Source: Ptychodera flava (taxonomy: Eukaryota). From it: a stretch of DNA of 64,000 nt. The stretch spans positions 31,770,780 to 31,834,779 of the forward strand of contig NC_091947.1 of assembly GCF_041260155.1 (NCBI RefSeq), read 5' to 3'. The notes under the pieces are model-generated. The model was not told the origin of the DNA. It worked only from the letters and a program-made list of their open reading frames with translations, and did not search any database. Position 1 is the stretch's first letter. Every line of letters starts with the position of its first letter. Positions 2,098 through 62,556 of this stretch are shown one piece after another. Made by a program: the position numbers and the translations under genes.

Positions 2098-2888
2098 GTA
2101 TGCATTTGTTGGTTGAAGTATCTTGAATTTTGTTCCTATTCATACTTACAGTGGTTTACTTTGAAACATTGGCATTAGACGAACGAGAAATATTGTCTAT
2201 ATTGAGGTGTTGCCAACACTGCCGGGTACAATCGACAGCTAAGCAATAACATGAGTCGATTATAAAAAAATCAACTCTGCAAAAGTTGAAACATTGTCTA
2301 GCAGACGGTCAGACGTAGTCTAAACAACACCACCGCATATGTCCAAGCACTGTCCAAGTCTTATCACTTGCTTTCAGGTGTAGTTGTTTTGACTACATCT
2401 GACCTGCTGTAAGACAATGTTTCAACTTTGGCAGAGTTGATCTCTCTGTGGTCAACTGGAATTTCTGCTCAGCTGATAATTACACCTGACAGTGTTGGCA
2501 ACACCTCAATTTAGACAATATGTCTACTTCGCGTAATGCCAATGCTTCAAAACAAACCACTGTATATGATGAATTTTGTACGTGCTGTATCCAGTTCAAC
2601 AATGTTTACACTGTACCACAACATCTTACCACCCTCTGTGGGTCAGCAGTATTCAGCAGATGTAATTTGATGTGTAGCAAAACTGTTGACACAAAACCAA
2701 TAATGTTGACATAAAATCGATTTCAGAAATTGCACAAATACTAGTTGTGAGCTGTTTAACAGTGCAAAGATATTTTACAGCCAGGAAGACGAACAGCAAA
2801 TGCACAATTAATGCAATATGTTTTGTAAATAAATTTCATGAATTTATTTTTTTATTTTTTTATTTTATTTAAATTTGTCATTTGGCAG

Positions 2889-7010: not shown

Positions 7011-9588
7011 CATGTGGTTCAAGGTGAAACTTCCTTCTTCAGGAATGGCATTAGTAATCTATGTAAATTTTGTCATTATGTGAAATTTTGGGTATTACAG
7101 CAGGAAAAGATTTCTGATCCTCTATCACTTCATGTATACATCAGCTTGTGCAGTAAGGAAAAATAGTTCTTTATATTGCTTCAGCTGCTTTTTGCCATTT
7201 TCTAACCATGGTGGTCAGTGGTATCAACAGAGTTTTTTAAGTAGAAAACGTGAAACAACAGACCTTGATAAGTATTTTTGTGATATATTTGGGACAAAAA
7301 AGAACATGACTTTTAATATTGAAAAAGAAACATACTAGTATATAGTTTTAGATAATCTTGTATCTTTTAATGAACAGGCAAACTACACTAAATTCAAAAA
7401 CTGTTGAGAAGAAATGGCTTGTAGATGGGACAAGTAGTTATGAACTAAAATGTGATTAGACTAACTCAGTGCTATTTTTTTTACTACAGTTTGTTTGACT
7501 GATATTTGAACATGTGATATCGAAATTAGTGATGTATCCAAATTGAAATGTACATTTGAAAGGTAGTTGTGCACAGTTCAAAAACTCATGAATTTGAAGC
7601 CATAGTCATGTGAGTTGCACACAATGTGATTGATATAAGCCATCTTCCAATAGCAATGGTTCTACTCTGGAATAAAATGACATGCAATGTCAATACGCCC
7701 AATGCATGGATCACATGATGACGGTACAAACAAACGCACATGTGCAAACGCGACTTGCATTGTGCACATGGTTCTGTTTGTATCATGGTGGATTCGAATT
7801 CCAGGTTTAGTCTGTTTTGCAGATCAAAATCAAATACTTCATTTGAGGGATTCTTCTTTATTGGAAAGTATTGCATCAGTAACTAAAAAATTGTGGATAC
7901 TTTCAGTACACTCCAGAGAAGGCCATTTTCAGGTCCGTGCAGCACTTCTATACCAAATCATTTGCGGATGCAGGGCTTCATTTGATACTGTCATGCCAGT
8001 CTTTACTGTAAAATTTGTTAGATCTGCACTATCCAAGATCTACGGATCAAAGAGACAGAGTCAAAATATCCAAAATGAGTTCTGTTTTCCTGTGAAAAGG
8101 AATCATACTAAATGCCCTATCGTGTATCATCATAAGTTAGTCTCATAAATATAAACTCTTCTGCTAGCTTCAACTCTTTCCCTTTCAATGTTTGATCAAT
8201 TTCTGAAAAGTGTAATCTTTGTGATACAATGCTCAATATGTAAATATGCAGTTCCTTGTGAAAAATTTGATGTTGTGGCTTAGAAGAATGATGGAAAGTG
8301 TAGTTGCAAAGTTAATAAGCCATAGAGATGTGGTGGGTTGCTCTTATGTCCCCTGTATGAGTACCAGCGTTTGTTTGTGAATGTGTTACTGCTAGTCCAG
8401 CAGAGATGTATGGGAGATGCAAATCTGATGTGAAATTTATTGATGCAGTATGTATTTTATTGAATATGAAGAAGAATGTGATATTTTCAATGAGCTGTAT
8501 CTGCTGAGATAGCTTTTGAGCTGATAATTGATGTTTTTTCAGTGTTATAAATGAATTAAACTGAATGTGTTTTGGTAAAGGCCACTCTATAGCTTCAAAT
8601 CCTTCTTTGTAGTTGCCAAAGTGACATTGAGATTTAATAGTTTCTTTTGAACTCAAAACTAACTTTTATGGTAGTTTTTGGTTCCAAAAAGACTATCTTG
8701 AGAAGGTGTATGCAATTTCCACTCTGTTCATTTCTGTGAAATGTACAAGTTAATTCATCTGTCGTAGGAAAAATGCTTTGAAATTGAAACAGCAGCAGGT
8801 ATTGATAGTACATTTACATTGTCAAATCTGGGCTTCCTGTTAGTTTGTTTTGTTCAGTACTTGTACGTCACGTCATGCCTGGTTCTAAATAATTCATGGA
8901 GAATAGTTGTAATTTGTGAATTTTCTGAAATAAAAACTTTTCAAGACTTCAAAGAAAGCATAGAATTCACTGAAATGTGCTGGTTGACTCTCATGACTTC
9001 TTGGCTATGATTCTTCACCCTGCATTTATGAGTCTCACATGTTTGAGCTAAAAATTTTCAAAATTTGCTGTACCTGACAATGCAGTATTTACACACCTGT
9101 TTCCTATGCTGTAAATTTGACAGCCATTTCACTTCTGATCACTTGACTGCTCTCCCCATCAAGACAACTTTGTATGATTCTTCAGAAAGTGAAATCCAAG
9201 AGACAGAACTTTATTCTTGTGGACATTTTCAATGTTTGCAGAATTAAGGAGTTTTCTAACATACTGGTATTTTAAAGGTATACAGTCACCAGTAATCTAA
9301 ATATGCCCTTATATGGTCAAAGGGGCGTTCCTTAGTATTCAAAATTCCCATGTGAGGGCGCTGTTTTTAAAAAGCGGCCAGTCGCTTAAAATCAATGATT
9401 GGTTAGATTTTCTCTTTCCATGGTAACTGTGGCACAATTGGAACAGCCCTTACGAAAAAATATGGCTTCTGGCACATAGTTGTGCATGCTAACCCACAAT
9501 AGTTGTGGATACCAAGCTGCAACTGTTTGTGGCTTATAAGCAGGTTATTCATATTTTATCATGCAAAGATCTGTTCTGGCACAGTTTT

Positions 9589-9703: not shown

Positions 9704-10956
9704 TAAAAGGTTTCATGGTAAAATGCTGCTATGCATGCTTCCTGCGCTACCCCCCCTCCCCAACCATACCTGCATTTGTACCTACCTGTTTTATACTAGC
9801 CAGGAGATTACCATACACTTCACATCTTCATTTTGTTTTAAGGGACAGTAGCTGTAACTTATGATGTTGCTCTTTTAACTTTTGTGCGTTGAGGTAACTT
9901 TTCACTTTACTCACTTGGCAAAATAGGCAAAAATCAAGACACATAACAGTATAAAAATACTGCATAAAAATTAAGTTACAGCTACTGCCTTTTAAACCGC
10001 CTACTCACATATGCAAACAAAAAAAAACACTTACCACATATCTTCACGATAATACCCCATTGTTTATTTTGATATGTAAAACAATGATGTTGGTACACTA
10101 GGCTGGACCACTAAGAAATTAAAATAAAATCAAAATTCAATAATCTAATGAGGTTCATGTGAAAAACATAACAGAACACGTCTAAAAGTCTGCATTTGAT
10201 TTTCACATTATCCAAAGTTGTTTTCGATGCCATCCTAATGTTTACGATCTTGTTCTGAAACTTCAGATTGAATGTTCCTGTTGATCCTTGATCCATTGGT
10301 CTGTTCAGCTTCATGGCCTTTGCCCATACACTGAGAATAAAAATGATAAATAACAGACAAGGATATTATTACATGTGCAAAGTGAAATTGCTTGTATTTT
10401 GTCGACTACCCTTATAATATATTTAATACAAAAATTCACGGAAAAGAGCATTCATGTGCTTGAAAGAAATTATAATAATTAATATTAAATAATTTACCAA
10501 TGATACAAACTCATGACATATCTATACATTATGTTATTGTGATTACCAAATCATTGCTTTTCAGCCTCATTTTCACTATTTACTTGTGACACACCACTCC
10601 AAACTACAACTATTGACCAGCGGTGATTGAGTTTCAGCACATCTCAAACAGAAGAAATGTAAATGGAAAACTGACTCATAAATTGTTTTAAAACAAAAAG
10701 TATCCCTTTATAATAGCGCAGTGCACGGTTACAGGTTTGTTACTAAATATACCGTAGCTGTACGCGCGCAATATCGGACACGCAGCTTGAAATGCGGACA
10801 AATTTTATCAATGTTGCATACATTGCTGTTTTTGCAGCTTGTACTCTGAGTCGTGGATATGCCTATTGGTATTCATTGTTACACTACTAGCAGTTAGCCC
10901 ACTAAGTTGTATTTTCGTCGTTCTTGCATTCGTAATTTTCAAAAGCGTAATCTAAA

Positions 10957-11015
10957 AATGCGGACGATGCTGTGTGTTGGCCGCTACAGCTAACACACAG
11001 CATCGTACGCAAGGC
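10957..11015. mobile_element. Hairpin MITE family, truncated copy
   Basis: CGATGCTGTGTGTT..loop..AACACACAGCATCGTACGCAAGGCT shares the arm motif of the 12945-13045 element. Confidence 0.4.
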
Positions 11016-11212
11016 TAGCGAGAGTTGCCGACATCGACGGTTATTTACGAGAAGTGAATAAAAGACTGGCATTTTTGGAAGCGATCGAGTAGCTGAGGTA
11101 GGCAGGGATACGACTTGGGCCCAAGAACGCTGAATTTCGGCAGTAATTTGGCTTTTTGCATCAAGTCCCAAAATGGATTTGAAGTCACCGACCCTACCTA
11201 CGCTACGGGTCT

Positions 11213-11279
11213 TTGCAGGGCTGTGGTGAGCGGGGCGATTAACTGTAGCGGAACACACAGCATCGTACGCGTAGGGCTA
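11213..11279. mobile_element. Hairpin MITE family, partial or rearranged copy
   Basis: GCAGGGC + TGTGGTGAGCGGGGCGATTAACTGTAG + CGGAACACACAGCATCGTACGCGTAGGGCT. The loop is the reverse complement of the loop in the 12945-13045 copy. Confidence 0.4.
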
Positions 11280-11780
11280 CCAACCTCCATGATTAACTAC
11301 CGGTATATTATTTTTGCCAATACCGTACGTTCATTTGGCATACTTGAACAGGGTTCGCCAAGAACAACATCAATATAGCACGACCAAAGACAGTGAAAAC
11401 TGCGAAAATTATAGAGACAACTCGTGGTGTTGAAATTACTTACCGAATTTTTAAACGATCTGTAGCTCTTCGATCAAACTATGGGTGTGTCCGTGACCGT
11501 TGTTCTTCGGGACGATATCTCGGTCTCAGAATCGGTCATCCAAGGGCCATCAACGCATCGCAAACGCTGTTTGTTGGTTTTAAATTCATAGCTAACCTTT
11601 ACGTACCCTGAATGATAATGTCCTACGGTAATTTTACGCTAAACTGTACAAAAATCAGAGCGAAAAAACGGCGACGATATACTCCTCGCTCAAACGTCCT
11701 AACGGCCTACCAGTGCATATCAGATTTAATTTGCCGCTCAGGATTTGACCCATGACCTTTTGGCAATCTGACCAATCATA

Positions 11781-12358
11781 GGGTGCGTTTGGGCGCACTG
11801 TTCTCGACACGAGAACGGTGCTCGGATGTGCCGAGCGCGCTCGATTCTCTTCGCTACATTTCCGGAAATAGCCGATCTTCGTTCCGAGAACGAAGAACAC
11901 AACCCTGGTCTGATCCGGGAGCAGACGAGAACAAGATGGCGGAAACCAGCCGCGCGAAATGAAAATGTCAGTGCTATGTTGCTATTGTATGAAAAACGTC
12001 TCAGGATACAAGTCGAGATGGGTGAATTATTATTACAAGTTTAATCTTTCCAAACATTTGATGTTTTTTCGTTTTTGGAGAGTTGTCGAAAATTTTTGAG
12101 AGTAAACTGTTGTACAAATGTACAACAAACGTCTTCAACGTAATATTTTGGTAAAGCTGATGTATGAACGATGATTAAAATATAGCGAAACAGGATTTCC
12201 TTCGTGAAAGTTGTCTGTTGCCGTGACTATAATCACATTTGTACCAAGTTCTGCCAAAGCGAGGCTGTGTCGTTTGGTCGTCAAGAACAAGAACAGCTAT
12301 CGGAAGCTCGCCCTCGTCGGATGTTCTCCTGACGAGAACGGTACGCCCAAACGCACCC
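11781..12358. mobile_element. Tourist/PIF-like MITE of about 578 bp nested in the composite element
   Basis: Perfect 15-bp TIRs GGGTGCGTTTGGGCG / CGCCCAAACGCACCC. They are flanked by ATA on both sides (tcATA|GGGTGCG ... GCACCC|ATAaag), consistent with a 3-bp TSD. Subterminal inverted motifs TTCTCGACACGAGAACGGT are present. Confidence 0.6.
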
Positions 12359-12944
12359 ATAAAGAAATGTTCACATGATCTACAACAATCTGACCAATCA
12401 TAAAGAAGTCTTCACATGATATATGACATCATCAGGCGTGATTCTAGAGTTCCGGGTTCAAAGTCTGTTCTGACCCACGCATTGTTTCAGCAAGCAGCTT
12501 GATCGATCTCGAGCGAGCTAAGCTGCATGCGACTTCGAGCTTGCGTTTGAAAACCAAAACGACACAAATACATGGGAATAACCTTTCTAGATCAACACAA
12601 AACTCTACAAAAACGGCTCCGACATAGCAGTCTCGTGACTTACAAACTTTGCCCGACGATGACTTTCATCGCGCACGTCCGTATTTTGAAGCCCAGCGTG
12701 ATCACTATGAAACTATGCGTACATTATTATACGCTGGGAAAGCTTTACCGTACGTACCTCCATGCCGTACGTACGCTTTCAAGACCTACTCCGTACTTGC
12801 AGTTCATTTAAAACCCGCGTGTGAAAAGGGCGTAAGAAAACACAAAAGAACAAGATATACGTTATTTTTGAGTTGCAGTTCTTTGAAAGACTAGTCTTTT
12901 CAAGGGAGATATGCACGTGAAATAAGTTCATTATACGTCGATAT

Positions 12945-13045
12945 TAGCCCTGCGTACGATGCTGTGTGTTCCGATCCGCTACAGCTAATCGCCCCGCTCA
13001 CCACAATTAGCTGTAGCGGAACACACAGCATCGTACGCAGGGCTA
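12945..13045. mobile_element. Hairpin MITE family, intact copy of about 100 bp with a 10-bp target-site duplication
   Basis: TIRs TAGCCCTGCGTACGATGCTGTGTGTTCCG / CGGAACACACAGCATCGTACGCAGGGCTA are perfect 29-bp arms. The inner loop is itself palindromic (CTACAGCTAAT...ATTAGCTGTAG). Direct repeat ACGTCGATAT lies immediately adjacent on both sides (12935-12944 and 13046-13055). Confidence 0.7.
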
Positions 13046-15987
13046 ACGTCGATATATGGTTCGCCAGAGTTAATATTTTGCAAAGCTTTTTTTCTGTAGA
13101 AACAGTTACGCTGTCAGTGAGAACCAATCATTTGCAAAACGTACATAAAAGTCAGTGATTGATTTATTGCACCGATCAAAGTCAAATGGTAGTTTTTCAC
13201 ACAATTTGTTGAAAATCAAAGGTTTCCCGCTGTGCCAGCTGTAGTGTCACTGTCAATGGATATCTCATCTAAGAATGCGTGATCAAGTGGAGTGTCAACT
13301 CAATGTTGTGGCTTATAGTGAGCAATATCTTGCTCAAACTGTGTTTATTTAAATATTTTAGCATATCTGCCACAAAAGATTTGACTGATTGTCTCTGTGT
13401 GCCTGTTAAGTGCCTCTAGTGGCACATATCGGCACATAATGAAAAATAAGTTCTGGCAGCCTTTTTTGTGTGTAGCTTATAAGCCGCAAGACAGTGGGAC
13501 ATATGCCACAAAAAAAAATTTTCGTAAGGGAGGTGACAGTATACCTTTAAAGTCCAGCCAGTCACATTCCTGTGCATTCTTTACGTGTTGATCAAAAAGT
13601 AGTGACATTGTGAAGGTTTACCAAGAATATCAGATGTCAAATTGTACTTGACACCATAAAGATCCCTCAGAAGACATCAGCCAAGAAATCTTGAAAGTGT
13701 GAAATTATGATATCATGGCCATCATAGACCAATTTAATTAAATTTAATTACTTGCTTACAAGGTGTGTATATTTTTCTGAAGCCTGAAGAAATAAATGTA
13801 TCCATGGATAATGTATGTTACTGTTGGCAGGATTGTATCGGTTTGATTGACTCAGAGAATCAACATTTGTGGCTTGGCTGTACAGAACTCACAGTACCAT
13901 TCTATTGATTGTGTCAAAACCATGGAAATGGCCCAAAATGTAACTTTTGATAAAGATTTGTTGTAAATGTATAGGACAATGCTAACAGGGATATTTTCAA
14001 GTGGGAGATGGGGCTAACACTATTTTGCCTCTGTGACAACCAGCTGATTGTCTGGCTTCACATTTTTAGTAGACTTTACTATTGTTTGAGAAACCAACAG
14101 TAATCTGACCAAAATGTCAGGAGTATCTAGGTCCTTTTATTCTGATTTGATCAAAAATTACTTCAATTTGCCACCTAACAGTCACTGAAATCACTTCATT
14201 GCAGTTCAACTATTATTTATTTCAGTAGTGATAAGGAAAGATACACTGCAAGTTGTTCCCTGCATAGAGGTCCATTTTGAGTACAGCAATGGAATATTCC
14301 CAAGAAATGTGGAAGTGTTCATCTGCCATTCACTCACTGACAGTCCTTTCAACAGAGAATGTACTGTGTATTTTATGAATGATAATCCTGTGTCAAGGAT
14401 TTCTTGTAAAAATTTTTTTTAACTCATTACCTCAATATGTTCCTTTGAGGAATTTCCCAATTTTGCATTCAACTGTATTCAATATTATCGATTTGGTTAC
14501 TTGAGTCAATAACTTCCTTTTAACATCATAAATGTTTACTGCAATATCTAATTGGATATTGAATGCAGTGGGATCCTGCATCTATAGAGCTTGGCTGGAC
14601 ATGGTTCTGGGTGCTAGGCTTGTGTCTGGCTCACTTGAGTAATTTTATTTCACATGAGTCTAGCGCCCTCTAGGACTGTGAAACTCTGATAAGCTTTTGT
14701 GTACCATAATGCAGCCAATAGGTTATGTATGACTGTTTATTGTCACCACCATTCTACAAACTGTTGTCTTCGTGCTACTACAAGAAAGTCACTGAAAACA
14801 CAGTGGCTACTTATCAGATATGAGCAAACACATGAAAGATTATTTTCATCTAAATTTTATTCTACAAAAAGGTTTATAGACAACGTATCTTACAGCAAAT
14901 AAGTTTGGAGTCCACGCATGATAACATTAATACATGTACATTCATAACACTGTAGTCACTACTTAGTCTAGTGTATGCATCTTCAGTGAATTATTATGGC
15001 ATATTGCTTTACGAATAATATATCCAAAACAATGCCGTCATTTATTGACAGGCACATGTCAGTTTGACTTTGCTTTAGCGACTGTCACAGATTGTCACAT
15101 AGGTTCAACAGCCAAATTTTTTTCATTGAGATCAAGCTCCCTTAAACAAAAACTTCAATCAAAGGAAGTGTTGATGTTGTCCATCAAGTAAAATGTAACA
15201 CTTTGCTGTAGCTTTCAATAATATGCCCAAGGCATTATGAAGTCATTAAGTAATCAGCATAACCATGGAGTTGTTTTTCAGGTCCATGGTGTAATTGATT
15301 AACTATGTGGTTGCCAAGATGAGTGCAAAAGCGAAGTTCAATAATCGAACGGAGTTAAAATCCCCTCCTTAACCATCAAATTTTGCTGTTTGAATTTACG
15401 TGACAATCTGAGACAGTCCCTTCATGTTGGACATTGGGGCAAATGTGAGACATGTTGTTGGCATTTGGACCTTGTGCCTTCAGCATTGGCATGCTAGAAT
15501 TCATCACAAACATCACAGTCTATTTGATGTACTTCTGATATGTCAATCAAGTACAAAATGACACTGAAAACATCAGCAAAGATCATTCAAAAATGTAACA
15601 GACACAAAAGTTGTTTAATTAAGAAAGAGTGTTTGTTGAAGAATGCATCTGACACATTTATTCCTTGCTGGTATAATGCTGTTTCTACATCAATTCAATT
15701 GCTCAAATGATAATATTGAGATATTACAAAAATCAGAGACATTAATATAATCAATAACTACCCCTATGCAAATTCAAATTTCCACCTACAAATTAAAATT
15801 AAATCAATCAGGAGAATAAAGAAAGAGCTCCAAGCGAAGAGTAATTTGATAACAGTCAGGAACACAATGCAACCACTCTCTATGTCCTGTTTGAACCTCC
15901 CTCATGGATCAATGTTCATATTTCTGGCAGTTTGTTGCAAGGGTAGAAAAACTACATTTCAGTTTGTGACCAGCTGACAAGCCTTGA

Positions 15988-16108: not shown

Positions 16109-16608
16109 CTGGAGGGAGAACAGACAAAGTCAGTCAGTCAGTTAGATACACCAAGTCAGAACAAGATATACACGTCTTATTTCCTTGAACTTGTCTCTGA
16201 AAAAAGTTGTCAATTTTCATTCCAGTAACAAACGATAGTCCATGGTCACTGTTCTCAGTATTTTGGAAATAGTGTCCTAACAGATCATTCTAAGAGTTGT
16301 AGTCGTTAAGAAACACTTCACTTCGTTGAGAGTAGTCTATTGACTTCTTCATTGTACCAGGTACAGCCAGACTGCACTTTTGACTTGTAAGAAACAACAA
16401 CAATCATCATAGCCTTGTGCTGTGGGAACCATTGACACTGATTGTTGGAAGGTAGTGTAATTTGTATTAAGGAGGTATGAAGGGCACAAGCTGAGATTGG
16501 CTTGGACATCAGTTTTCTTCACTGTGGACAGAAACATTGCATGATAAATGGCACCGCCCTCTAGGTAGAATAAAGTATCTGTATTGTCACAAACACCACA
16601 ACTTAGTC

Positions 16609-18188
16609 AGGGCTTGACAATTCCTATCGCCCGACGCCCGGGACAAGTGAAATTTACGTTCGGGCAAGTCAAAAATAAAATCTGGTCGCCCGCCGGACAA
16701 GTTGTTTATACAACTTCTGGCGCAATCAACGCGAACCTAAGTTGCGGTTTGTGCACGTGTCGCCCGATTTGCGTTGTCGTTCACACAAAATAAATGTCAA
16801 TCACTGACTTTTTTAGATACAATTTCTTCTGCGATTCACTTGCCGACTCACAAAATGTTGCAATTTTTCGATGATCGACATGAAATTGTTTCATCCTCCA
16901 ATTAAAAAAGTCGCTTAAAATTTGGCGTAAACAGCATTTCTTTGTTGTATGCTGACTGCTCCGCCCCAACAAATTAGGTAAAAAATTGCAAAACCCAATC
17001 ATATTGCTTATCGGCGATCGACCGTGCAGTACTTCAAAATCATTTATGCTGCCTCGCGAGGTAGACGAACATTGTTGGCAGATAGTTAGTGGAGTGATCG
17101 CTGTAAATATGAGTATTTTACGGTAATATTTCCACTAACGCAAACAAGGCATTGTGCATTTTCGCGAGCCAGAGCGTAGTTTCCGCTCCGCAGACCTACG
17201 TAAAAATCAAGCAAAGCTGTTGCCGTAAAGAGGCGCGTAGTTTACGACGATGGGCATTGTGTAACTCTGAGAAACGACGTTGTGATGATTTACGACGGCG
17301 CCACGAGGGCCAGCGTGAGTGGGATCGTCTGAGAATCGACGACTCGATGTGATGATTAGAACGATGTTTCTGACAAAAGATCTAAACATAAGCATTATGA
17401 TGAGGAAAAACGCCGTAGATGTTATCTCCGAAATGGAAAGCACTGTGGCCTTGGTTGAAATATGACGATTCCAAAAATGTTCTATACGTCGTGTCTCAAA
17501 TACCCCACCATTGCCAAACCATGGAGGTAGGAAGAGACTACCCATGGCCAATCCAAGCGAAATGCTTTTCTTGACGGATGCGACATGTTTCGCGTTGAAG
17601 CGTTCAGGTCTCACGAGTTTTGTGGAGGGACCGTGGTTTAGTCAACCGCATTTGGACTTTTGGCGCATCGCAGATGAGATAGTGACGGGGACAATGATTG
17701 TGGAAATTTTGTGGGTCCCGCTGAGCCCGGGGCCAACACCCCGATCGCATGCACTCGCAATGCGTGAAGCGAATGACGACGACCAGAGACAGAAACTGAC
17801 CAATCTTTTTACGACAGCATTTATGCTTGCCAAACACGGGAAGCCGATGTAAGATATGTACCTTCAAATTCAATGTTTTGTTAGCCCTGCGTACAGGTCT
17901 GTGTGTTCCCGGCGTTGTACGGTCTCTATTGGCGGAGGCCGTATAACGCCGGGAACACACAGACCGTACGCAGGCATACTTCAATGTAAACTTTTGAGAA
18001 AAATCGGCGTCAACATCGGCGAAAATCACCAAAATAAGAAAACCCTGAAAGCCGCTACGGAATTCGTCGCAAGTATTTGGTCTTGATTATTACAAATGGA
18101 GGACAAGTAAAATTTTGAGAGGACAAGTGAAATTGAAAATCCACTTGTCCGACGGACAAGTGAACTGGAAAAAAATTGTCAAGCCCTG
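16609..18188. mobile_element. Non-autonomous hAT-like DNA transposon of about 1.6 kb in the last intron of BUB3
   Basis: TIRs (C)AGGGCTTGACAATT / AATTGTCAAGCCCTG. The Ac-like CAGGG terminus is present. 8-bp direct repeat ACTTAGTC flanks at 16601-16608 and 18189-18196. Subterminal GGACAAGTGAAATT repeats occur in inverted orientation at both ends (about 16640-16700 and 18090-18170). Internal ORFs of 113-142 aa have no recognisable transposase motifs. The element contains a copy of the hairpin MITE at 17882-17976. Confidence 0.65.
17882..17976. mobile_element. Hairpin MITE family, variant copy inside the hAT-like element
   Basis: TAGCCCTGCGTACAGGTCTGTGTGTTCCCGGCG...CGCCGGGAACACACAGACCGTACGCAGGC. 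The loop GGCGGAGGCCGTATAACGCC resembles that of the 61339 copy. Confidence 0.6.
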
Positions 18189-21468: not shown

Positions 21469-22173
21469 CTACAGCAAAAAACAGGATGGTTGGACAGTCT
21501 CATATACATTACGTTTACTTTTTTGTACGTGGCACACAAGTTTTGTAGATAACATTGTAGATAAGAAGAACCGACTCATTTGAGTGTCTGGATAGAACAC
21601 ACAAGGGAATTGCTAGATTACTAAGCTACTGCAGTGAACTGCAATAAAACTGCTCACATTAATTAGTTTCAGCTGTATCCAGCTGGCAAAGTCGACAACA
21701 TTGTATGTCCCATGCAGACAGTTTGTCTGGGGAAGTTGAAATAAACAAGATTTGTACATGGACCAGTGATGGTAATGTTACATTGTATCTTAATCTTGAA
21801 CACAGGGTGACAATCGTAAACTTCCATTTACAACCCCAGACAGAGCTAGTTTTGCCTTTGGACAAGTAGAATTTTTTTGTCTGTATCAAGTAACCTTGGT
21901 CAACACTAAAGTGGCCACGGGTGAAACAGAAACTGCCCAGTTATAACACACTACACGCCAATCTGCCAGCTGGCTACAGCTGAAACTAATTAGTGTAAGC
22001 AGTTTTATTGCAGTAGCTTAGTAATTTAGCAATTCCCTTGTGTGTTCTATCCAGACACTCAAATGAGTCGGTTCTTTTTATCTACAATGTTATCTACAAA
22101 ACTTGTGTGTCACGTACAAAAAAGTAAACGTAATGTATATGAGACTGTCCAACCATCCTGTTTTTTGCTGTAG
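21469..22173. mobile_element. Foldback-type MITE of about 705 bp with roughly 225-bp inverted arms, in MVP intron 1
   Basis: The left arm at 21469-21692 is the reverse complement of the right arm at 21949-22173 (CTACAGCAAAAAACAGGATGGTTGGACAGTCTCATATACATTACG... / ...CGTAATGTATATGAGACTGTCCAACCATCCTGTTTTTTGCTGTAG). The unique centre is about 256 bp. A possible TA target-site duplication is present (cTA|CAGC...GCTG|TAg). Confidence 0.7.
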
Positions 22174-28464: not shown

Positions 28465-28571
28465 TAGCCCAAACATAGGACTATGTGCCCGAGGGTTGAT
28501 GACCATTTGCCCGACATAAGGAGGGCAAATGGTCTCCTGCCCCGAGGGTAAATAGTCCCTTGTTTGGGCTA
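28465..28571. mobile_element. Hairpin MITE of about 107 bp
   Basis: Inverted arms TAGCCCAAACATAGGACTATGTGCCCGAGGGTTGATGACCATTTGCCC / GGGCAAATGGTCTCCTGCCCCGAGGGTAAATAGTCCCTTGTTTGGGCTA. Confidence 0.55.
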
Positions 28572-31743: not shown

Positions 31744-32241
31744 TCCAGCTGAAGAGCACAACACTAGAGTAGCTGTCTTTTGTGTAGCGTGTATTGGCAT
31801 GTATAGTGCGTCCTCGTAAATGTGACCTTTAGTTCCGTGACCTCTCGGCTCTAGCCATGCCTACTTCCTGCCCTGACCTCGCTATGCTTACTGTACTTAT
31901 ACAGTAAACACAGCGACGTCTGTATGCATGGCCAGTAGGCATGGCCAGAGGAATTGGCTAGAGGTTACGGAACTAAAGGTCGTATTTAAACATGATCACA
32001 TTCCCCATTGAGGGCGCACTATACATGTCAATACTGACCTCGCTATGCTTACTGTACTTATACAGTAAACACAGCGACGTCTGTACGCATGGCCAGTAGG
32101 CATGGCCAGAGGAATTGGCTAGAGGTTACGGAACTAAAGGTCGTATTTAAACATGATCACATTCCCCATTGAGGGCGCACTATACATGTCAATACAAGCT
32201 ACACAAAAGACAGCTACACAAGTGTTGTGCTCTTCAGCTGG
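31744..32241. mobile_element. Foldback MITE with a tandemly duplicated right arm, in an MVP intron
   Basis: The outer arms CCAGCTGAAGAGCACAACACTAGAGTAGCTGTCTTTTGTGTAGC at 31744-31787 and its reverse complement at 32198-32241 pair with each other. The inner arms pair as well (...GTGACCTTTAGTTCCGTGACCTCT.GGC...CCATGCCTAC against GTAGGCATGGCCAGAGG...GGAACTAAAGGTCG...). The right half is present as two tandem copies of about 150 bp, at 31880-32030 and 32031-32195. Flanking TAAT/TTAAT is present. Confidence 0.65.
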
Positions 32242-48049: not shown

Positions 48050-48991
48050 GGGACCGTTCAGTTTTACGGCCGGGGGGGGGGGGGGGGGGGGGCGGCAAAA
48101 TCTTGTCGCCGGTGTTCAAAAAAATGATGACCCCCCTGCATTTTTCGCGAAAAAATGATGACCCCCCCTTTGTCAGACGAAAAATTTGATGACCCCCCCC
48201 CCCCCGCTGAAAAATAACCAAAACCCATATGTCAAATTTACCTGCACGGTTTGGATTTGAACTCCGGTACGCGGCGCACTTTATTCGTGTAGCAGAGATG
48301 CCAGTGTACAAACTTCTCAGCCACATCCATGCAAACGTCTGTTAATTAGGACTACTGTAGGGCAATTTTAACTTCATTTCCACAGACAACTTATGTCCAT
48401 GGACATTGTATAAAATAAACTTTATTGGAGTGGTTCGCCAAAGGCAGCCCTCTGGTTAAGAGGGTCATGGGCCATTACGTAAAGTAAACTTTATTCTAGT
48501 GGGCACCAAAGGTGGCCCACTGGTAAAAGAGGGTCGATCATGGCCATTGCATGAAGTAAACTTTACTGAACAGGGCCGCTGAAGGCGTCCGGCCGTTAAG
48601 ATGGTCATGGGGTATTACAATAAAGTAAATTTATTGTAGTGGGCCGCCGCAGGCGGCCCGCCGGTAAAGAGGGTCGATCATGGCCATTGCATGAAGTAAA
48701 CCTAATTGGAGTGGGCCGCCAAGGCGTCTGCCCGCTGAGAGGGTCATGGGTAATACATAAAGTATATTTATTGTATTGGGCCGCCGAAGGCGGCCCGCCG
48801 GTAAAGAGGGTCAATCATGGCCATGGCAGAAAGTGGACTTTATTGTAGGTATTATGTTTTTGAAAATGTGGTGACCCCCCCTTTCCTACCAGTGAAAAAG
48901 TGATGACCCCCCCTTCTTGGATTCCAAATTATGATGACCCCCCCCTGGATTTTGCCGGCCCCCCCCCCAGCCGTAAAAACTGAACGGTCCC
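48050..48991. mobile_element. Tourist/PIF-like non-autonomous element of about 942 bp with homopolymer G/C tracts and an internal satellite array, in ENPP intron 2
   Basis: TIRs GGGACCGTTCAGTTTTACGGCC(G)n..GGCAAAAT / ATTTTGCCGGCC(C)n..GCCGTAAAAACTGAACGGTCCC. TTA lies on both flanks (taTTA|GGGACC ... GGTCCC|TTAat), a 3-bp TSD. Three subterminal direct repeats AAAA.TGATGACCCCCC(C) occur at each end in the same orientation. G runs of about 20 and C runs of about 13 are present. Confidence 0.65.
48400..48840. repeat. Internal tandem array of the 48050-48991 element, a higher-order repeat of about 140 bp repeated about 3.5 times
   Basis: Alternating units of about 77 bp and about 65 bp: ...TAAAGTAAACTTTATT.TAGTGGGC.CC..AGGCGGCCCGCCGGTAAAGAGGGTCGATCATGGCCATTGCATGAAG / TAAAC.TAATTGGAGTGGGCCGCCAAGGCG.C.GCCCG.T.AGAGGGTCATGGG.ATTAC. 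Each unit has a GGGCCGCC..GGCGGCCC palindromic core. Confidence 0.6.
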
Positions 48992-49214
48992 TTAATTTAA
49001 CCTTGAACTAAGGCAGACTTTTCTAACCCCGAAAACTCTAACACTTTTAGATAGGTTCTTGGCAAGTAGGAATTTGAAAACTATATTTTGACATTTGACA
49101 ACTTGACTTCACTTCACTTTTTCCGTAGAGACAGTTTTTAAAAAATCTTTACAAGTTCAATTTTAGGATGATATTGCAAAAATCGAATGCAAACTATGAA
49201 AGATCCATTCTTAC

Positions 49215-49951
49215 CGCAAATATCTCCCATCCCTCATCACAAACTATTAGTATCGGTTGAATTCGTCTGTTGTTTCGATAGTGCCAGTGCTCTGGGATGT
49301 CTTCCTTCAAGTACACCGTTAAGTTAGGGTGTTTTCCATTCAGGCTGTTGTATACATCCATGATTTTGTTTTCAACGGGGAGGATATTCATGACGGGACC
49401 AAACTCAGTTACCAGCTTGACGTCACCAGGATCCACGTAATCGTAAAGGTCAAGGTTGTTGCTGGTGGGTGTTTCTGCCATTCCATGGTCAGCAGTGATG
49501 ATAATGTTAACGCTGTCATAAATACCTGCTTCTGTGAATCTTTCAGCCAGGTAACCGAGGAGCTCGTCCAGCTTTCGTATCTCTTCGGTCGTTTCCGGAG
49601 AGTCATACCCTTGTTCGTGACCATAGCCGTCCGGTTCATCAAAGTATAGAGCGATGAAGTCAATATTTTCTTCGGTGAACCATCGAACCACTGTATCCAC
49701 GCGAGCTCTATAAGGATGACTTTCATTGTATTTTAACCAAATATCTGGATCATATCCACCGTTTGTAGCTGTCTCTCCCCCAATCCAGAAGTAGGAGGCA
49801 CTACGCCCTCCTTGCTTTGAAACCGTTACCCATACGGGCTCTCCACCGTTGTCCCACCATATAGGATCTTTGTTGGACATAGCAAATGTCGCATTGAGGA
49901 CGGGGTCGTACATTCTGTTGCCAACAATTCCATGGCTCTCCTGGTACAAAC
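49215..49951 (-). CDS. ENPP4/5-like coding exon 2, a 737-nt exon
   Basis: Encodes (G)LYQESHGIVGNRMYDP...YFWIGGE...IDFIALYFDEPDGYGHEQGYDSPE...IIITADHGMAE...NLTVYLKEDIPEHWHYRNNRRIQPILIVCDEGWEIFA. The metal-binding and catalytic motifs of type I phosphodiesterase/nucleotide pyrophosphatase are conserved, against ENPP5 LFAENHGIVANDMFDP...YWEDPDDMGHHLGPDSP...IITSDHGMT. Acceptor ctcatag|, donor GCG|gtaaga. Confidence 0.85.
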
Positions 49952-51679
49952 CTATGAGATGTCAGATGAAAATTGTATATTATGACGAAGCATGCATCGC
50001 CTGAAGGACATGCAGTCCTTGAGGTATATAATAAAAAAGAACTAGACTGTCTTCGGTTAACTTCAGCTAAATTAAAGTTCAACATTAACTTCGCTTGTAC
50101 AATTTTCATTTAAACAATCGTCATGTAAATTGAAGGAGTCTGAAAAACAAAAAACCACAACGCTAACGATGTGTTAGTGTCATGGAATGACAAAAATGAT
50201 CATGCTTCCGGGCACATAGGCTGTCAACTTAATACATTTCTTCATCATTTTAGACTGTGTGTAACTTAGTTCCAATCTATCAGGAAACGATGGTACAATG
50301 TCTTTCAGCAGGATGAGACTGCATATCGTTTTTAAATTATTTCAGGGATCTCACCGACGCAATGTTTCGGTAGTGCTGTAACCTTCTGGTTTGACCAAAT
50401 CCGGAAGTTTTGTGTATGTGAATATAGTCGGAAAATTCATGGGACCGAGCCCGGAACATACATATATGATATGCGCTTAAGCTTGTACAACCAGGCACAT
50501 TTTTCATAATAAGCTGAATTCTACAAACAAGTCTTATCAACATGAACGGAATAGATCACTGATGACCCTGTTCCTATGCCACATATCCAACGACTGACGA
50601 TCAGTACGAAGCTTTCCATTGGTAATTTTGTGTCGCTCAAATGGAACAGGAAAAGTCCAGACATTTTAATATCATGATGGAACAGGATATTCAATAATGT
50701 AATTCTTAAGATTGTTCAGGTTTTTAAAGAAATAAAGTATGATGTGATGAACAAAACTCGCACAATTAAGCACACGCTTACTTCTAATATGTGCTTTTGT
50801 GTGGTTGAGAAAAGTACATGACTTTGTTAAATTTATCATTACGAGGACAATTGGTAGTATGTTGCATATATGCAACGGTAACGATTTTGTTGTGATCGTT
50901 TTTCATTTCCTGAGCCAGCGATCGATTCCATTCAAAGTTATCACGAGGACAGTTTAATGCAACATATGGACGTCAATATTTGATTTGCAATACGGTTTAA
51001 TGTTGTCACACTGTCGGCTATTTTCCCGCAATAATTATATCATATCTGAGGTCGTTATTCCGACATATGTCAACAGATATCTTTAAAAAGGCACGAAGAC
51101 AAGACAGCCCAGATTTACCATTAAATATCCTTGTCAGTTTGCTATCAAATTTCCGATCACGAAAATCCTGAGTACTCGTATGTTTCAGTCTTCCCAGACG
51201 CAATTACGCGAAGTTTATTGTGATGCTTTAGGAGTGTACATAGCGCAATATGGGGATAATTGTACATGAAATCCAGGCAATATTGCGCTCCTCGATAGCT
51301 TTGTCAACACGTTCGCATGACAGTCCATTCCTGACAAATATTTGGACATTTTTCACTTTTTATTTGTTATTTATTGCCATGCATGCCATATTTACCGATG
51401 CGGCTTGTTACACGAGCCCTTCCTGGCGTTTAGCGTGGTACGATATCAGTGGTTTACATCATGTCAATATCAGTATAAAATTACCGTTTTTGTCATTCTT
51501 ATACTCGTAATTCATTTATCTATTTTGATTTTGAAACTGGTCAAATATATCAGATATTTGGTTAAAATACGACGACGACAAGAACAGAACTATTATATTC
51601 ATAAACCTTGCCATAAATAGGGAAAAAGAACGACAACATTGGTGTATAGGCTTCAACAATGAGACCCGAACTCCTCATA

Positions 51680-51808
51680 GTTCGAGGTAGCCTAGTCCCT
51701 AAACGAAGTATTTTTGTCTTCGGAGGTTTTTGGCATTCGCCTATGGGCGAAGGCCAAAAATCGCCGAAGGTAAAAGTACTTCGTCTAGGGACTAGGCTAA
51801 GTTCGAGG
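51680..51808. mobile_element. Hairpin MITE of about 129 bp in ENPP intron 1
   Basis: Arms GTTCGAGGTAGCCTAGTCCCTAAACGAAGTAT / AGTACTTCGTCTAGGGACTAGGCTAAGTTCGAGG. The inner region (CGGAGGTTTTTGGC...GCCAAAAATCGCCGAAGG) is partially palindromic. Confidence 0.55.
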
Positions 51809-52503: not shown

Positions 52504-54562
52504 ATTGGATTCAACACCCAGATTGAACACCGCTTTAGACCATAGACGACCATATGCCGAAGACAGTGGCGCGGAAAATGATGGTCTGTGGTTGGGTGGG
52601 TCTATCGTTCGCAGTCTGTGCGTTTCACATCTGACCTAAAAAGTTGAAAGTTAATAGGTTGGCCGTACAGTGTGCCTGGTGACAATTCATAAACAAACAA
52701 GTGTGACCCTTGGTATACTTACAATGAACTCAAATCTATGGTTTTTAGGGTCTATGTTCACTTGTAAATATCGTGCATATTTCGCAATCTTCGCCATTGA
52801 CATTGATTTATTATCGCTAGATCACTTAGATTTATCATGGAGATAGCACACAGAGTGTTACATAGTGCTACCACCATGGATACTTTCAACAATACTTCTG
52901 AAGATAAGGCTGAAATAAGTACCATTGTGTCAAATTTAAGTATCCGTGCTTGAAGATAAAGAAAGCCCTCACGCTATGACCAAAGCAGTATTTAGGTTAC
53001 CGGGTATATATGTATATGTCCACATGATATTATCATTTGCGCAAGGTGATAGCATGAGATAATAGTGCCCAGTTGCAGTATTATATAATCTTGGTAGATA
53101 GTCATATGTGGTCGGCTCCAGGCATTCAGGAAGGGCACATTCGAGCGACATTCAGAGATTAAAAGCCCAGTAGGAATATTTTTCGCCCTCGTCGCATCAG
53201 AGAGCAATTTACATAAGCATTTTGGGTGTCGACTATATTTTGATGATTATACACATATGATTGGTCACATCATAGATAGTAGAGGGAGAAAGACTACTGT
53301 CTATGGTCACTGTCACTCTCTAGATTGACAATTCGAGGTACGACAGTATTGTACAGGGAGAGCAAAAGCACTTATATTAACCATAGATCCGTTTTTAGGG
53401 TCTATGTATTAACAGAAATGTTTATACATCAAAACATGCACCCTTTGTCCTTGAAAAAAACTAAGTGAAAATATACAAAAAAGTCATAATATTCACTGAT
53501 TGATGTCAATGTTTACTATTATAATTGTAGTGATAGACTAATTCAGTACTTTCTTGTTTTTTGGTTTGTTTATTTGTTATAATTACCGTAACAGTACTGA
53601 TAGAGACTGATTCAGTATTTTCTTGCTTTTTGTTCGCTAAAAGGTTTCATATTCCCATTGTCTGTGATAATGCTTTTTAGTGCAATATGAGGTAAAGACT
53701 ACACAAAAATGTCATTTTATTGATATGAAACAAAAAGTCGTTTATTTTCTTTTGCTTAAGTTATTTAAATATATGCGCCTTTTGAACTGAAATATAGAGG
53801 TTAAATTTGACGGTAGAAGTACAGTCAAAAGCTCCAATAATGTGTAAGTTCTTGGAGATATAGTTCTTAATTGCTTTTGTGCATTCACATTTCAGCACAC
53901 GGTTTTAAATATCACAATGTCTTTTCCGTATGCTAATGCTTAGACTTGGTTCAAGTCGGTGATATTTTAAAAAATAAAATCATTTGTAGTAGTTTCTCTT
54001 TTGTCTCTAGAATTTCATACAAGACTAACTGGAATTTGGCAGCCCAGACCAGGTTTTCCTAGCAATTGAAAGTGTTACCTTTGAGTCTGGGCAGTAGTAA
54101 GTTAGTTAATAGTGAGTTAGTTTCTGCCGGGAGAAACTCCCGTGCACCCCCCTCATCGCGTTCACCCCACTCACGCGTTTCACATGAAAACAGAACACCA
54201 ATTATCGCTTTCACCCACTCAAACATTCGCAAATCACCAAGTCTAGCTTGTGCACAAAATTGATGACAACTACGAATAGAAAAAACATCCCTGCTATCGA
54301 ACTCGAAATGTGGTGGGATGCGCCTTGGGGACAGACATGCGCATTCACAAACTTTTACAAAACAGCTTGTGGGGGCTCATTTTGAAGCTCATGGGGTTTA
54401 TAAAGTTTTCACAAGCTAATTTTTTGAAATTCGAAAATCAATTTTTCCCACCTGGTCACTTGGCGAGATGGACAACCCGCAGAGACTCGCATGTGACCCG
54501 CATTACTTTTTCGCGTGTACTTAATTACATTCCACATTCCATTCCAAATGTCAGTTCATGTA

Positions 54563-54780
54563 GAACACGATTGGAATTAATTTGGGATAATTGGATGGTG
54601 AAGTAATGTCTATTTGATCTGCAAATGTAAGCTCATCTGCTTTTCTTTTTGAGTTGCACACTTGCTTTTATGAGTAATTTGTAATATTGCAACATTCAGC
54701 TATAGGGCACCTAACATTTTTGAGAAATTTGAAAAATATGAAAATCCAATTATCCCAAATTAGTTCCAATCGTGTTGTAG
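54563..54780. mobile_element. MITE copy B of the family seen at 46845-47065, about 2 kb upstream of the ENPP ATG in inverted orientation relative to copy A
   Basis: TIRs of about 35 bp: AACACGATTGGAATTAATTTGGGATAATTGGATGG / ATCCAATTATCCCAAATTAGTTCCAATCGTGTTG. The internal GTAATTTGTAATATTGCAACATTCAGCTATAGGGCACCTAAC is the reverse complement of copy A's. Confidence 0.6.
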
Positions 54781-59617: not shown

Positions 59618-61338
59618 TGGTTCAAACTAAGATCTTCAACTTAGTCAGTGAAGTGGAACTTGAGACTCTCTTCACTGGCTGTACGTCTGTAGTACGCGTC
59701 TCGATTCAAATTCATTCTGTATCCTCACAGCTAAAGGAGTAGAGAACAGCCTGTCTTTCAAGAATTATTGCAAGTTGGACATTTGCCGACCACTCTTCGC
59801 GTTTTCAACTAAATAAAAACACAACTACGGATCTGACGAATACTGGTGAAAGTGACACTTTTCCACCGTATATTATCGTCATATTAGTGTTGGCCTCAAA
59901 AGTCCCGGAGTCATTGCCATAAAAATAAACACACTGTCACACACTGGTATCATACATATGTGAAATGACAATAAGTTCCCCCTCCCCCCCAAAAAAGATT
60001 GTTTCTTGTCATCGAGCGCGTCATTTCAGAACCTGCGCGTTATGTCTCTTTTTGGTTACGTACTCATCAGTACAGCTATCCTTGATATCCCCGTTGCATA
60101 TCAAAAATGTTAAAAAGAAAACGGAAGTATTATGCAGTCAGTGATAAAAGACAATAACTGTAGCATCAATAGTGCCTAACCAGCATTGCTATGTAAAAAA
60201 AAGAAAGAAAAAAAGAAAAAAACCGTCTCGCCGCATCAGTTTTGCTGAATGTCAAGGACCAGAACCAATTTATTTGGCCTAATATTGAGTACAATAATAT
60301 TCGATAACATATAGATATCATTTACTGCAACGTCCATTGGGCGAATTGTGTTGTCATAATGCCATAAATCGACGCCATCGTCACACGTTTGCCAAGACGA
60401 TCACGGCCAGACAGAGTGCTCTACATGCTAAACGGCTCGCCGACCGGACAGGACCGGACGCGTGGCAGATTATGCCATCGTGTGTACTCGATGATAACAT
60501 TAATTATATCATTGAAAAGTGATATTTTACGTGATTTTATACATGTATCTTCCTGTTTTTATAAAACTAACAAGCAACCTGCAAGTATGTTGACCAAAGG
60601 CCAAAGCAACTGATGTAAAACAAAAGAATGTTTTTACGTTGTTGTTTTTATCCCATGGAAACCGCATTCCGATGTTGAATATGTATAATGTAGTCAAACA
60701 TTTACCCCCGCGCGTTCGTTTGCAATTTCGCAACGATGAATGGCGTTGTGCATAAATTGTGCATAAACTGCGATTTTACATTTGTGATGCTCCAGGGTTG
60801 CCGTTGCGTTCAATGGCTCTAGCTCTAGATGAACGTCAAGTGTTTCAACGTCAGATAATCAGCCGCTCCAAGGACATGTAGTCATTGTTGAGTGCAAAGA
60901 AGTCCTTCCGCCACGAATTTACATTGAATTTTTGTATTATAATGGCTAGGGATTTAGTTTCACTTTTTAAACGCTATATTAGAAATTTTTCACTGAAGTG
61001 GTAAAGTGACTGGTTGGGAAATCTGTAGGTGTGGAACTCATAACCCTATTACAGTAAGGCTAGCACCGAACAGCAATTAAACGGTTATGGGAAAATACGA
61101 GAGAGTTGAACAAGGCCACCTGTAACTGTCATAACCTGGCTTGGATCATTGACAGTAGAAGCGCATTAGTTGTGCGGTATATCTGTAAATTTAGAACGAT
61201 GACAACGAAATAAGCTTATTCAACCATTATCTCACTTCTACCGCCTATGCATATGACCTACCTACCACTGAAGATAAATTCAGTCATAGTCGGTTAAAGT
61301 TCTATACACGGCGAAGGCCGCCTTTCAGTGGCCTTCGA

Positions 61339-61431
61339 AGCCCTGTTTACGATGCTGTGTGTTCACGGCGATGTATGGCCTGTGGTGGGAGGCCGTACAA
61401 CGCCCGGAACACACAGCATCGCACCAAGGGC
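61339..61431. mobile_element. Hairpin MITE family, fifth copy
   Basis: AGCCCTGTTTACGATGCTGTGTGTTCACGGCG...CGCCCGGAACACACAGCATCGCACCAAGGGC. Same TIR family as 12945-13045 and 17882-17976. Several mismatches indicate an older copy. Confidence 0.55.
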
Positions 61432-62213
61432 CCACAAGCGACGTTGAGTTTAGTTACATCACAGCTGGCTGGACAAACCACAGGTATGGAAACGTGTTGC
61501 ATGCAAAACATCTGGAACAAATGCGGCCCCTCTGAAGTTGGAGGCTGGCAACCAACACAACGATATGTATGATACATTACCTTGGTTTCAACAACGGTGG
61601 CCATGATTGACAAGATAGAATAGCACTCCTAGTCTTTAAGAGTAGTTTCTGATAACTACTACGGGTTAACAAGACTTTTATAGTCTGACAAAACGAAAGA
61701 GGTAGGCTGCTGACGCCGCTAATTGGATGACAGAGGAAAACCCTAGTCATGCCATGGTACTACCTAGGCACGTGGAAAATATTCGCAAACTTACCAACCG
61801 GTATCCCACGGCGGTGGCCTTGAGGGCGAACGTTTCAACTTGTAGGGGAGGGCCCGTAGAATTTTGGAACAGAACATTCTTCTGCCATGATAAAAATTTG
61901 CTAGCTCTGTCTACGGGTACAAAAATGTATTATTTCGAACCTGTCTACGGGTACAAATGTATTATTTCGAACCTTTTCCGTGATTTCCCTATCACTTCAC
62001 TAATTTAGTACATCCTATCTTTTCAAGACTGATCGAGGCCTTCCCGGGAACATTAAAAAATCTTAAATATTTATAATTTTTTTTCTTGACAAGCAGTTTA
62101 TCTTTCTAAATTTTCGATCCTCCATTAAAAATATTCACTACAACCTTATTTCCCTGCGCCGTGAAATTATGTCGTCAGAAAAGGCAAAATACGATATTTG
62201 AACATCAACGCAC

Positions 62214-62556
62214 TGATATGAAGTTTTTCTGGTATGTTCAATATGTACTGATATGAAGTTTTTCTGGTATGTTCAATATGTACCGATATGAAGTTTTTCT
62301 GGTATGTTCAATATGTACTGATATGAAGTTTTTCTGGTATGTTCAATATGTACTGATATGAAGTTTTTCTGGTATGTTCAATATGTACTGATATGAAGTT
62401 TTTCTGGTATGTTCAATATGAAGTTTTTCTTGTATGTTCAATATGTACTGATATGAAGTTTTTCTGGTATGTTCAATATGTACTGATATGAAGTTTTTCT
62501 TGTATGTTCAATATGTACTGATATGATGTTTTTCTGTATGTTCAATATCTGAAAAG
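62214..62556. repeat. Minisatellite, 35-bp unit repeated about 10 times
   Basis: The unit TGATATGAAGTTTTTCTGGTATGTTCAATATGTAC is repeated head to tail with point variants (C/T, GG/TG) and one truncated unit. Confidence 0.85.

Follow-up and report, generated by a model that had tools for sequence, protein, structure and literature searches.

What kind of mobile element, if any, lies behind the short hairpins that recur in a 64,000-nucleotide stretch of the genome of the hemichordate Ptychodera flava (RefSeq assembly GCF_041260155.1, contig NC_091947.1, positions 31,770,780 to 31,834,779; this whole stretch is the window below, numbered from its first letter), and which enzyme might have moved them? 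A first-pass annotation had described a family of about 100-bp hairpins at five loci in the 64 kb, interpreted as MITEs (short for miniature inverted-repeat transposable elements). That they are MITEs is strongly supported by our analysis: the copies share terminal inverted repeats (TIRs), are associated with target-site duplications (TSDs) and an empty site, are dispersed (another chromosome carries one, in addition to the five loci of the 64 kb) and have no coding capacity. Beyond this, we consider it probable that these ~95–105-bp non-coding copies derive from a DNA transposon of the cut-and-paste kind, with a transposase of the Mutator-like element (MULE) type. As far as could be checked, the family is previously unreported: a full-text literature search with the TIR string retrieved no papers, and a search of the literature on P. 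flava MITEs returned nothing specific. The palindromic core and tip patterns of the family are absent from JGI metagenome contigs, IMG/VR and prokaryotic genomes.

The count of five loci stands. An nhmmer profile of the arms recovers nine arms in the 64-kb window (E-values 4e-9 to 5e-5), every one of them at these loci, and none elsewhere in the window, the next match having E = 1.6; direct reading of the loci, blastn-short and the arm profile concur. Likewise, a 28-mer allowed up to three mismatches occurs three times in the window, against zero occurrences expected in shuffles. Position 6586 had seemed to offer a degenerate solo arm, which we set aside, as it looks like an exon–intron junction and has no nhmmer match. 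The proposal that all copies share a 29-bp TIR is correct only approximately: the nine arms match the 29-mer at 22–29 of its 29 positions, one of them bearing a 2-nt insertion, and the exact TIR (29/29 on both arms) occurs at 12945–13045 alone, the remaining arms matching at 22–26/29.

The copies fall into two subfamilies, A and B, which have the CTGTGTGTTCC block in common and differ in their inner stems, each of which is palindromic. The intact subfamily-A copy at 12945–13045 (101 bp; no strand is assigned to it or to the other family features in the window, save the half copy described below) carries the 29/29 TIR TAGCCCTGCGTACGATGCTGTGTGTTCCG on both arms; its inner stem, CCGCTACAGCTAAT, encloses a loop of 16 nt, and 5 extra nucleotides (GATCC/CCGAT) are confined to the left arm. 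An internally deleted subfamily-A copy at 10953–11017 forms a 65-bp mini-hairpin, from which the loop and the right inner stem are gone and in which the left tip is mutated to TAAAAA (TAAAAATGCGG...). What had been reported as a hairpin copy at 11213–11279 is really a half copy of subfamily A on the minus strand at 11222–11279, reversed relative to the 12945 copy and comprising one arm, the inner stem and the loop; its second arm is missing, and an isolated 8-nt fragment of a tip, GCAGGGCT (11214–11221), adjoins the loop. Three of the five copies, all of subfamily A, lie within 2.1 kb (10953–13045), and two of these are rearranged, which suggests local reinsertion or hairpin-driven deletions.

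The subfamily-B copy at 17882–17978 (97 bp), located inside a larger element at 16608–18188, has the family tips and the CTGTGTGTTCC block, but with GGTCTG replacing GATGCTG on both arms; its inner stem, CGGCGTTGTACGG(C/T)CTC, is unrelated to that of subfamily A, and its right tip is degenerate (GGCATA). An older copy at 61338–61432 (95 bp), both tips of which are eroded, joins an A-like outer arm (GATGCTG) to a B-type inner stem. The 12945–13045 coordinates are unchanged from the first-pass annotation, and the limits of the mini-hairpin, the subfamily-B copy and the older copy are refined to those given here. What had been taken for two loop types are in fact two different inner stems, the true loops in the predicted fold being just 4–16 nt.

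Each full copy is hence close to a whole-length palindrome, and the claim that the hairpins are very stable is borne out thermodynamically. Folded as single-stranded DNA, the three full copies reach −48.4 kcal/mol (12945; z = −14.2), −48.8 kcal/mol (17882; z = −14.5) and −36.9 kcal/mol (61338; z = −8.6), and the 10953–11017 mini-hairpin −25.9 kcal/mol (z = −8.3); the half copy at 11222–11279 does not fold into a hairpin (z = +1.7). The suggested parts for these hairpins in cruciform formation, recombination or the production of small RNAs are speculative. At 65–101 bp, within the size limit of ~800 bp for MITEs, the copies have no coding capacity, and the open reading frames (ORFs) overlapping them are devoid of any Pfam family.

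The clearest mark of insertion in the window is at the intact copy, where the reported clean 10-bp TSD is upheld: ACGTCGATAT occurs at 12935–12944 and again at 13046–13055, abutting both ends of the element. An abutting repeat of at least 9 bp around a random 101-bp interval of the window has a frequency of 8e-5, nearly all such cases being in tandem arrays. The terminal TA of the element is not the duplication, because the 10-bp repeat sits outside it, and an 8-bp TSD at this copy would require asymmetric ends. The predicted empty site is ...TTATACGTCGATATATGG...; the flanks of all copies are unique, so that no paralogous empty site is found in the window. None of the other four window copies shows an abutting TSD, and the flanks of the 10953–11017 and 61338–61432 copies contain no recognizable one. 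Outside the 17882 copy, an 8-bp repeat TTCAATGT (17864–17871 and 17984–17991) is displaced by 5 bp from each end; the chance of any shared 8-mer within 20-bp flanks is ~0.7%. These repeats may represent a TSD that has shifted or eroded, or they may be a coincidence.

A second TSD of the family comes from a receptor gene. When the copies were translated in their open frames and searched against a protein collection, a single protein was matched, XP_070573993.1, annotated as 'histamine H2 receptor-like [P. flava]' and encoded on a different chromosome (42.4 Mb). The next accession, XP_070573994.1, which belongs to the same 90% cluster, is a complete seven-helix G protein-coupled receptor (GPCR), and over residues 1–222, up to ...SSSTG, it shares 95% identity with XP_070573993.1. 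After SSSTG, XP_070573993.1 continues as SPAYRSVCSRRYTASTACGGGRVTPGTHRPVRRA, the in-frame translation of a whole subfamily-B copy 104 nt in length. This protein segment, SPAYRSVCSRRYTAS...THRPVRRA, is read as T/AGCCCTGCGTAC...GTACGCAGGGCT/A, or at the nucleotide level as T/AGC CCT GCG TAC ... CGC AGG GCT/A, and beyond it the C-terminal tail is TPQGTSRTLPREN, followed by the stop.

We compared this tail with an exhaustive enumeration of the codons of the paralogue around the break, trying duplication lengths k of 0–15. The tail equals the downstream codons of XP_070573994.1 (NQPHFTKGELK) read out of frame, with a solution at k = 9 only, the duplicated string being CTCCACAGG; at this locus the enumeration gives no solution for k = 0–8 or k = 10–15. 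Even with the paralogue left aside, a 9-nt duplication is compatible with only 0.9% of random contexts. Read back from the two proteins, XP_070573993.1 thus demonstrates an insertion with a 9-bp TSD, for which XP_070573994.1 provides the related empty site. The DNA predicted for the former is ...CTCCACAGG/TAGCCCTGCGTAC...(104 bp)...GTACGCAGGGCTA/CTCCACAGGGAAC..., and that predicted for the latter is ...CTCCACAGGGAAC..., uninterrupted.

The copy sits in the coding sequence of the third intracellular loop and truncates the GPCR after the fifth transmembrane helix, shifting the frame so that a stop follows 13 codons later; XP_070573993.1 probably represents a young pseudogene that carries a protein annotation. 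The insertion postdates the duplication of the receptor gene, the products of which are still 95% identical. Together, the pristine 12945 copy and this insertion after a recent gene duplication show that the family has been recently active.

Searching the window for TAGCC...GGCTA pairs with complementary ends uncovered two more whole-length hairpins, unrelated in sequence to the family. The first, a sister hairpin at 51688–51799 (112 bp; tips TAGCC...GGCTA, starting TAGCCTAGTCCCTAAACGAAG...), is present in a single copy in the window and is flanked by a perfect abutting 9-bp repeat, AGTTCGAGG (51679–51687 and 51800–51808). The other, at 28465–28571 (107 bp), starts with TAGCCCAAACATAGGAC, ends in ...GTTTGGGCTA and has more diverged arms; no clear TSD was seen at it, and a further 4 bp on the outside (ATCA/TAAT) can be added to its inverted repeat. 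The intact copy, the receptor copy and the sister hairpin taken together, the TSDs of TAGCC-tipped elements here measure 10, 9 and 9 bp, respectively. In ACGTCGATAT and AGTTCGAGG, an A at position 1 and TCGA at positions 4–7 hinted at a common target motif, an idea that was rejected because the third TSD, CTCCACAGG, lacks it.

Two larger structures enclose copies of the family. The 1.58-kb element at 16608–18188, which contains the 17882 copy, is bounded by perfect 15-bp TIRs (CAGGGCTTGACAATT), with the 7-bp direct repeat ACTTAGT abutting them; it is non-coding and lacks a transposase domain, and from its CAGGG terminus it may be described as hAT-like, though with a repeat of 7 bp and not 8. 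The earlier idea of a copy nested in a hAT element is thus right as to the nesting, with the 7-bp repeat and the missing transposase qualifying the label. The three clustered copies are bracketed by a 20-bp inverted repeat, TTTAAAGGTATACAGTCACC, with one mismatch (9271–9290 and 13532–13551, 4.28 kb between the arms), of which zero such matches are expected in shuffles. The 4.3-kb composite element proposed around these copies is matched by this inverted repeat and by nothing else: neither a TSD at the repeat nor a transposase domain inside it was found.

As to the enzyme, TSDs of 9–10 bp exclude Tc1/mariner (TA), PIF (TTA) and hAT (8 bp). MULE TSDs are 8–11 bp, commonly 9, and are variable within families (PMC6446971, PMC5225508, PMC3169594), single MULE families being recorded with TSDs of '9-10' and '9-11' (PMC6446971 Table S1). 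The putative assignment to the Mutator/MULE superfamily, which had been drawn from the length of the one TSD, is thereby strengthened by the second, 9-bp TSD of the family and by the 9-bp TSD of the sister hairpin. MULE TIRs are typically long, often >100 bp, and some MULEs have TIRs of 20–40 bp (PMC6446971). In the present family the arms, of ~45 bp, comprise the whole element, which is compatible with truncated long TIRs and not diagnostic of them. Whole-length palindromes with subfamily-specific inner arms are what is expected of deletion derivatives of parents with long TIRs, a trait of MULEs.

We accordingly picture an element that would be little beyond its two TIRs. The transposase, with its gene at some other place in the genome, would bind the common outer ~26–29 bp, with their conserved blocks TAGCCCTGCGTAC and CTGTGTGTTCC; this DDE enzyme would act in trans, excising the element and reinserting it into target cuts with a stagger of 9 or 10 bp, the repair of which would leave the 9–10-bp TSD. 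The enzyme would most likely be Mutator-like, that is, a MULE transposase, perhaps one of the Phantom/Foldback-like type found in animals, and the two subfamilies, which have their outer arm in common and unrelated palindromic inner arms, may derive from related long-TIR parents. The Mutator-like identity of the transposase is something we infer, as are the mobilization in trans and the origin of the palindromes from long TIRs. One may go further and see in the three TAGCC(Y)...(R)GGCTA hairpins (~100–110 bp) a still-active, hemichordate-specific and so far unreported Mutator/Foldback-like lineage, the transposase of which would recognize the 5–6-bp tip together with the hairpin geometry and would currently be reshaping P. 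flava genes, as in the disrupted GPCR paralogue; this we regard as speculative and rather unlikely as a whole.

Several observations weigh against a MULE origin. No transposase or reverse transcriptase domain is detected by Pfam in any of the 253 stop-to-stop ORFs of ≥58 aa in the window, all of which were scanned, and no MULE is tied to the termini; the published MULE survey includes no MULE from a hemichordate or an echinoderm. The family's own TSDs number just two, one of them read at the protein level; in three of the five window copies no TSD is seen, and the 17882 copy is without an abutting repeat. Moreover, Merlin transposons are abundant in P. flava, and a 9-bp TSD also falls inside the Merlin range (PMC8101967).

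Among the alternatives, the one that survives best, although we judge it improbable, is that the MITE belongs to another or an undescribed superfamily, such as an aberrant hAT-like group with a transposase that cuts with a 9–10-bp stagger. Members of the hAT superfamily have an 8-bp TSD and a YARNG terminal motif. The superfamily of the present elements is, after all, read from TSD length alone; TAGCC agrees with YARNG at four of its five positions, and the window does contain the non-autonomous hAT-like element at 16608–18188. Position 5 of the terminus is nevertheless C and not G, the 12945 copy cannot be parsed with an 8-bp TSD unless its ends are asymmetric, and at the XP_070573993 locus such a TSD is excluded by the enumeration.

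The main rival, to which we give a still lower probability, is that the MITE was derived from and mobilized by a Merlin (IS1595-like) transposon and not a MULE. Merlin TSDs are 8–9 bp, and P. flava has hundreds of Merlin matches, including at least eight intact transposase genes (PMC8101967); two of the three TSDs here, those of the XP_070573993 copy and of the 51688–51799 hairpin, are 9 bp long. Against this, the one TSD of the family to be read directly measures 10 bp, beyond the described 8–9 bp, and Merlin TIRs carry conserved 5′-GG termini (PMC8101967), whereas those of the family are 5′-TAGCC...GGCTA-3′; since the 9- and 10-bp repeats abut the terminal TA, this dinucleotide cannot be counted as part of the target.

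That the sequences are not mobile at all, being structured-RNA genes (e.g., microRNA precursors) or palindromes born of local errors of replication or recombination, is very improbable. The great stability of the hairpins and the clustering of three copies within 2.1 kb (10953–13045) would fit such an origin, but nowhere in the window is there a match to an Rfam family, insertion events are marked by the TSDs and by the related empty site, the copies lie on two chromosomes with one in a coding exon, and they decay freely, as the half copy and the deleted copy illustrate. Finally, a Stowaway-like Tc1/mariner MITE, with the terminal TA...TA as the TSD and GCCC...GGGC as the element proper, is effectively refuted: the palindromic TA does let TAGCCC...GGGCTA be parsed formally as TA + element + TA, ~100-bp whole-length hairpins are typical of Stowaway-type MITEs and a Tc1/mariner-like element is present in the window (2147–2564), but this leaves unexplained both the perfect 10- and 9-bp repeats just outside the TA at two independent elements (8e-5 each) and the duplication of 9 nt that the GPCR locus requires.

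The family sits in a setting rich in other repeats. The window has a G+C content of ~36% and only three ORFs of ≥150 aa in its 64 kb, no tRNA genes were found in it, and short inverted-repeat elements are abundant across it, features that mark it as eukaryotic. All of its Pfam matches fall in host exons (major vault protein, WD40, longin, ENPP and thioredoxin); the 251-aa ORF at 49194–49949 on the minus strand is an ENPP exon, 100% identical to P. flava XP_070541284.1, the gene for which is placed on a 39.1-Mb sequence. In Glandiceps talaboti, the ENPP5-like and major vault protein genes adjoin (OZ203279.1, 16463576–16486997) as they do in the window, so that this microsynteny is conserved between two enteropneust families. 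Neither the hairpin MITE family nor the two other TAGCC hairpins has a copy in the orthologous 23-kb Glandiceps locus, which is too little sequence for absence of the family from that genome to be claimed.

The window is also crowded with MITE-like repeats, comprising several hairpin or TIR elements, some in two copies: 45218–45354 and 45883–46019; 54561–54779 and 46857–47049; 47799–47977; and 21638–22014. Among these repeats are two 137-bp GGATAAA(G/A)CCC... palindromes in opposite orientation and a ...CCAATTATCCCAAATTAGTTCCAATCGTGTT family. At 2147–2564 there is a 418-bp foldback-like element with 188-nt arms, 79% complementary, and ends TA/CAGTGG...CCACTG/TA, which point to a Tc1/mariner-type MITE. 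Tandem arrays with units of 35 bp (×~10), 69/140 bp and 161 bp (×2), together with G13–14 and C13 homopolymer runs in inverted orientation beside the ENPP exons, are recorded at 62212–62548, 48410–48842, 31873–32195 and 48062–48214.

For the annotation of this genome, the family supplies a clean TIR and a consensus for masking, and it accounts for at least one truncated RefSeq gene model, that of XP_070573993, the GPCR cut in its third intracellular loop; as read from the protein record, this receptor ORF shows at least one gene-disrupting insertion by the family. It further represents a transposon system with 9–10-bp TSDs that was recently active in a slowly evolving deuterostome genome and, should a MULE turn out to be its partner, a gap would be closed, hemichordates being absent from the published MULE survey. 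The current understanding of MITEs is left unchallenged by these elements, which are real but ordinary in kind, and probably Mutator-like.

Among known systems, the Tm1 Mutator/Foldback elements of root-knot nematodes, and especially Tm1-ML, are similar in being an animal family made up mostly of inverted-repeat arms, with TSDs of 8–10 bp, mostly 9, and no target consensus; there, the non-autonomous members outnumber the copy with a Phantom-type MULE transposase (PMC3169594). Tm1 has composite TIRs that combine asymmetric 7-bp end motifs with 13–15-bp tandem subrepeats (PMC3169594), whereas in P. flava the arms consist of unique sequence and their TAGCC tips are symmetric; a transposase-encoding member is known in Tm1, while the P. 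flava family is known from non-autonomous copies alone. A comparable case is that of the short non-autonomous derivatives of Muta1 and of further Aedes aegypti MULEs, hundreds of which share TIRs with an autonomous element and move by cut-and-paste; these likewise vary by 1 bp in TSD length (8 or 9, against 9 or 10 here) and have no target preference (PMC5225508). The Muta TIRs are, in contrast, mostly >100 bp, with subterminal tandem repeats and derivatives of heterogeneous internal sequence (PMC5225508), whereas the P. flava element measures ~100 bp in all, with arms of ~45 bp, and both activity and an autonomous partner have been demonstrated for Muta1 (PMC5225508), the present family being represented by short copies alone.

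The hairpin MITEs of the Stowaway and Tourist types resemble the family in size class, whole-length hairpin, location in introns and transposons, and lack of coding sequence, but their TSD is TA or TTA/TAA, as opposed to 9–10 bp of arbitrary sequence (ACGTCGATAT, CTCCACAGG). The Merlin elements of P. flava, for their part, are abundant in the very same species, and their 8–9-bp TSD overlaps with the 9-bp cases described here (PMC8101967); they differ in having 5′-GG termini and no described 10-bp TSD (PMC8101967), where the family has TAGCC tips and, at its intact copy, a TSD of 10 bp.

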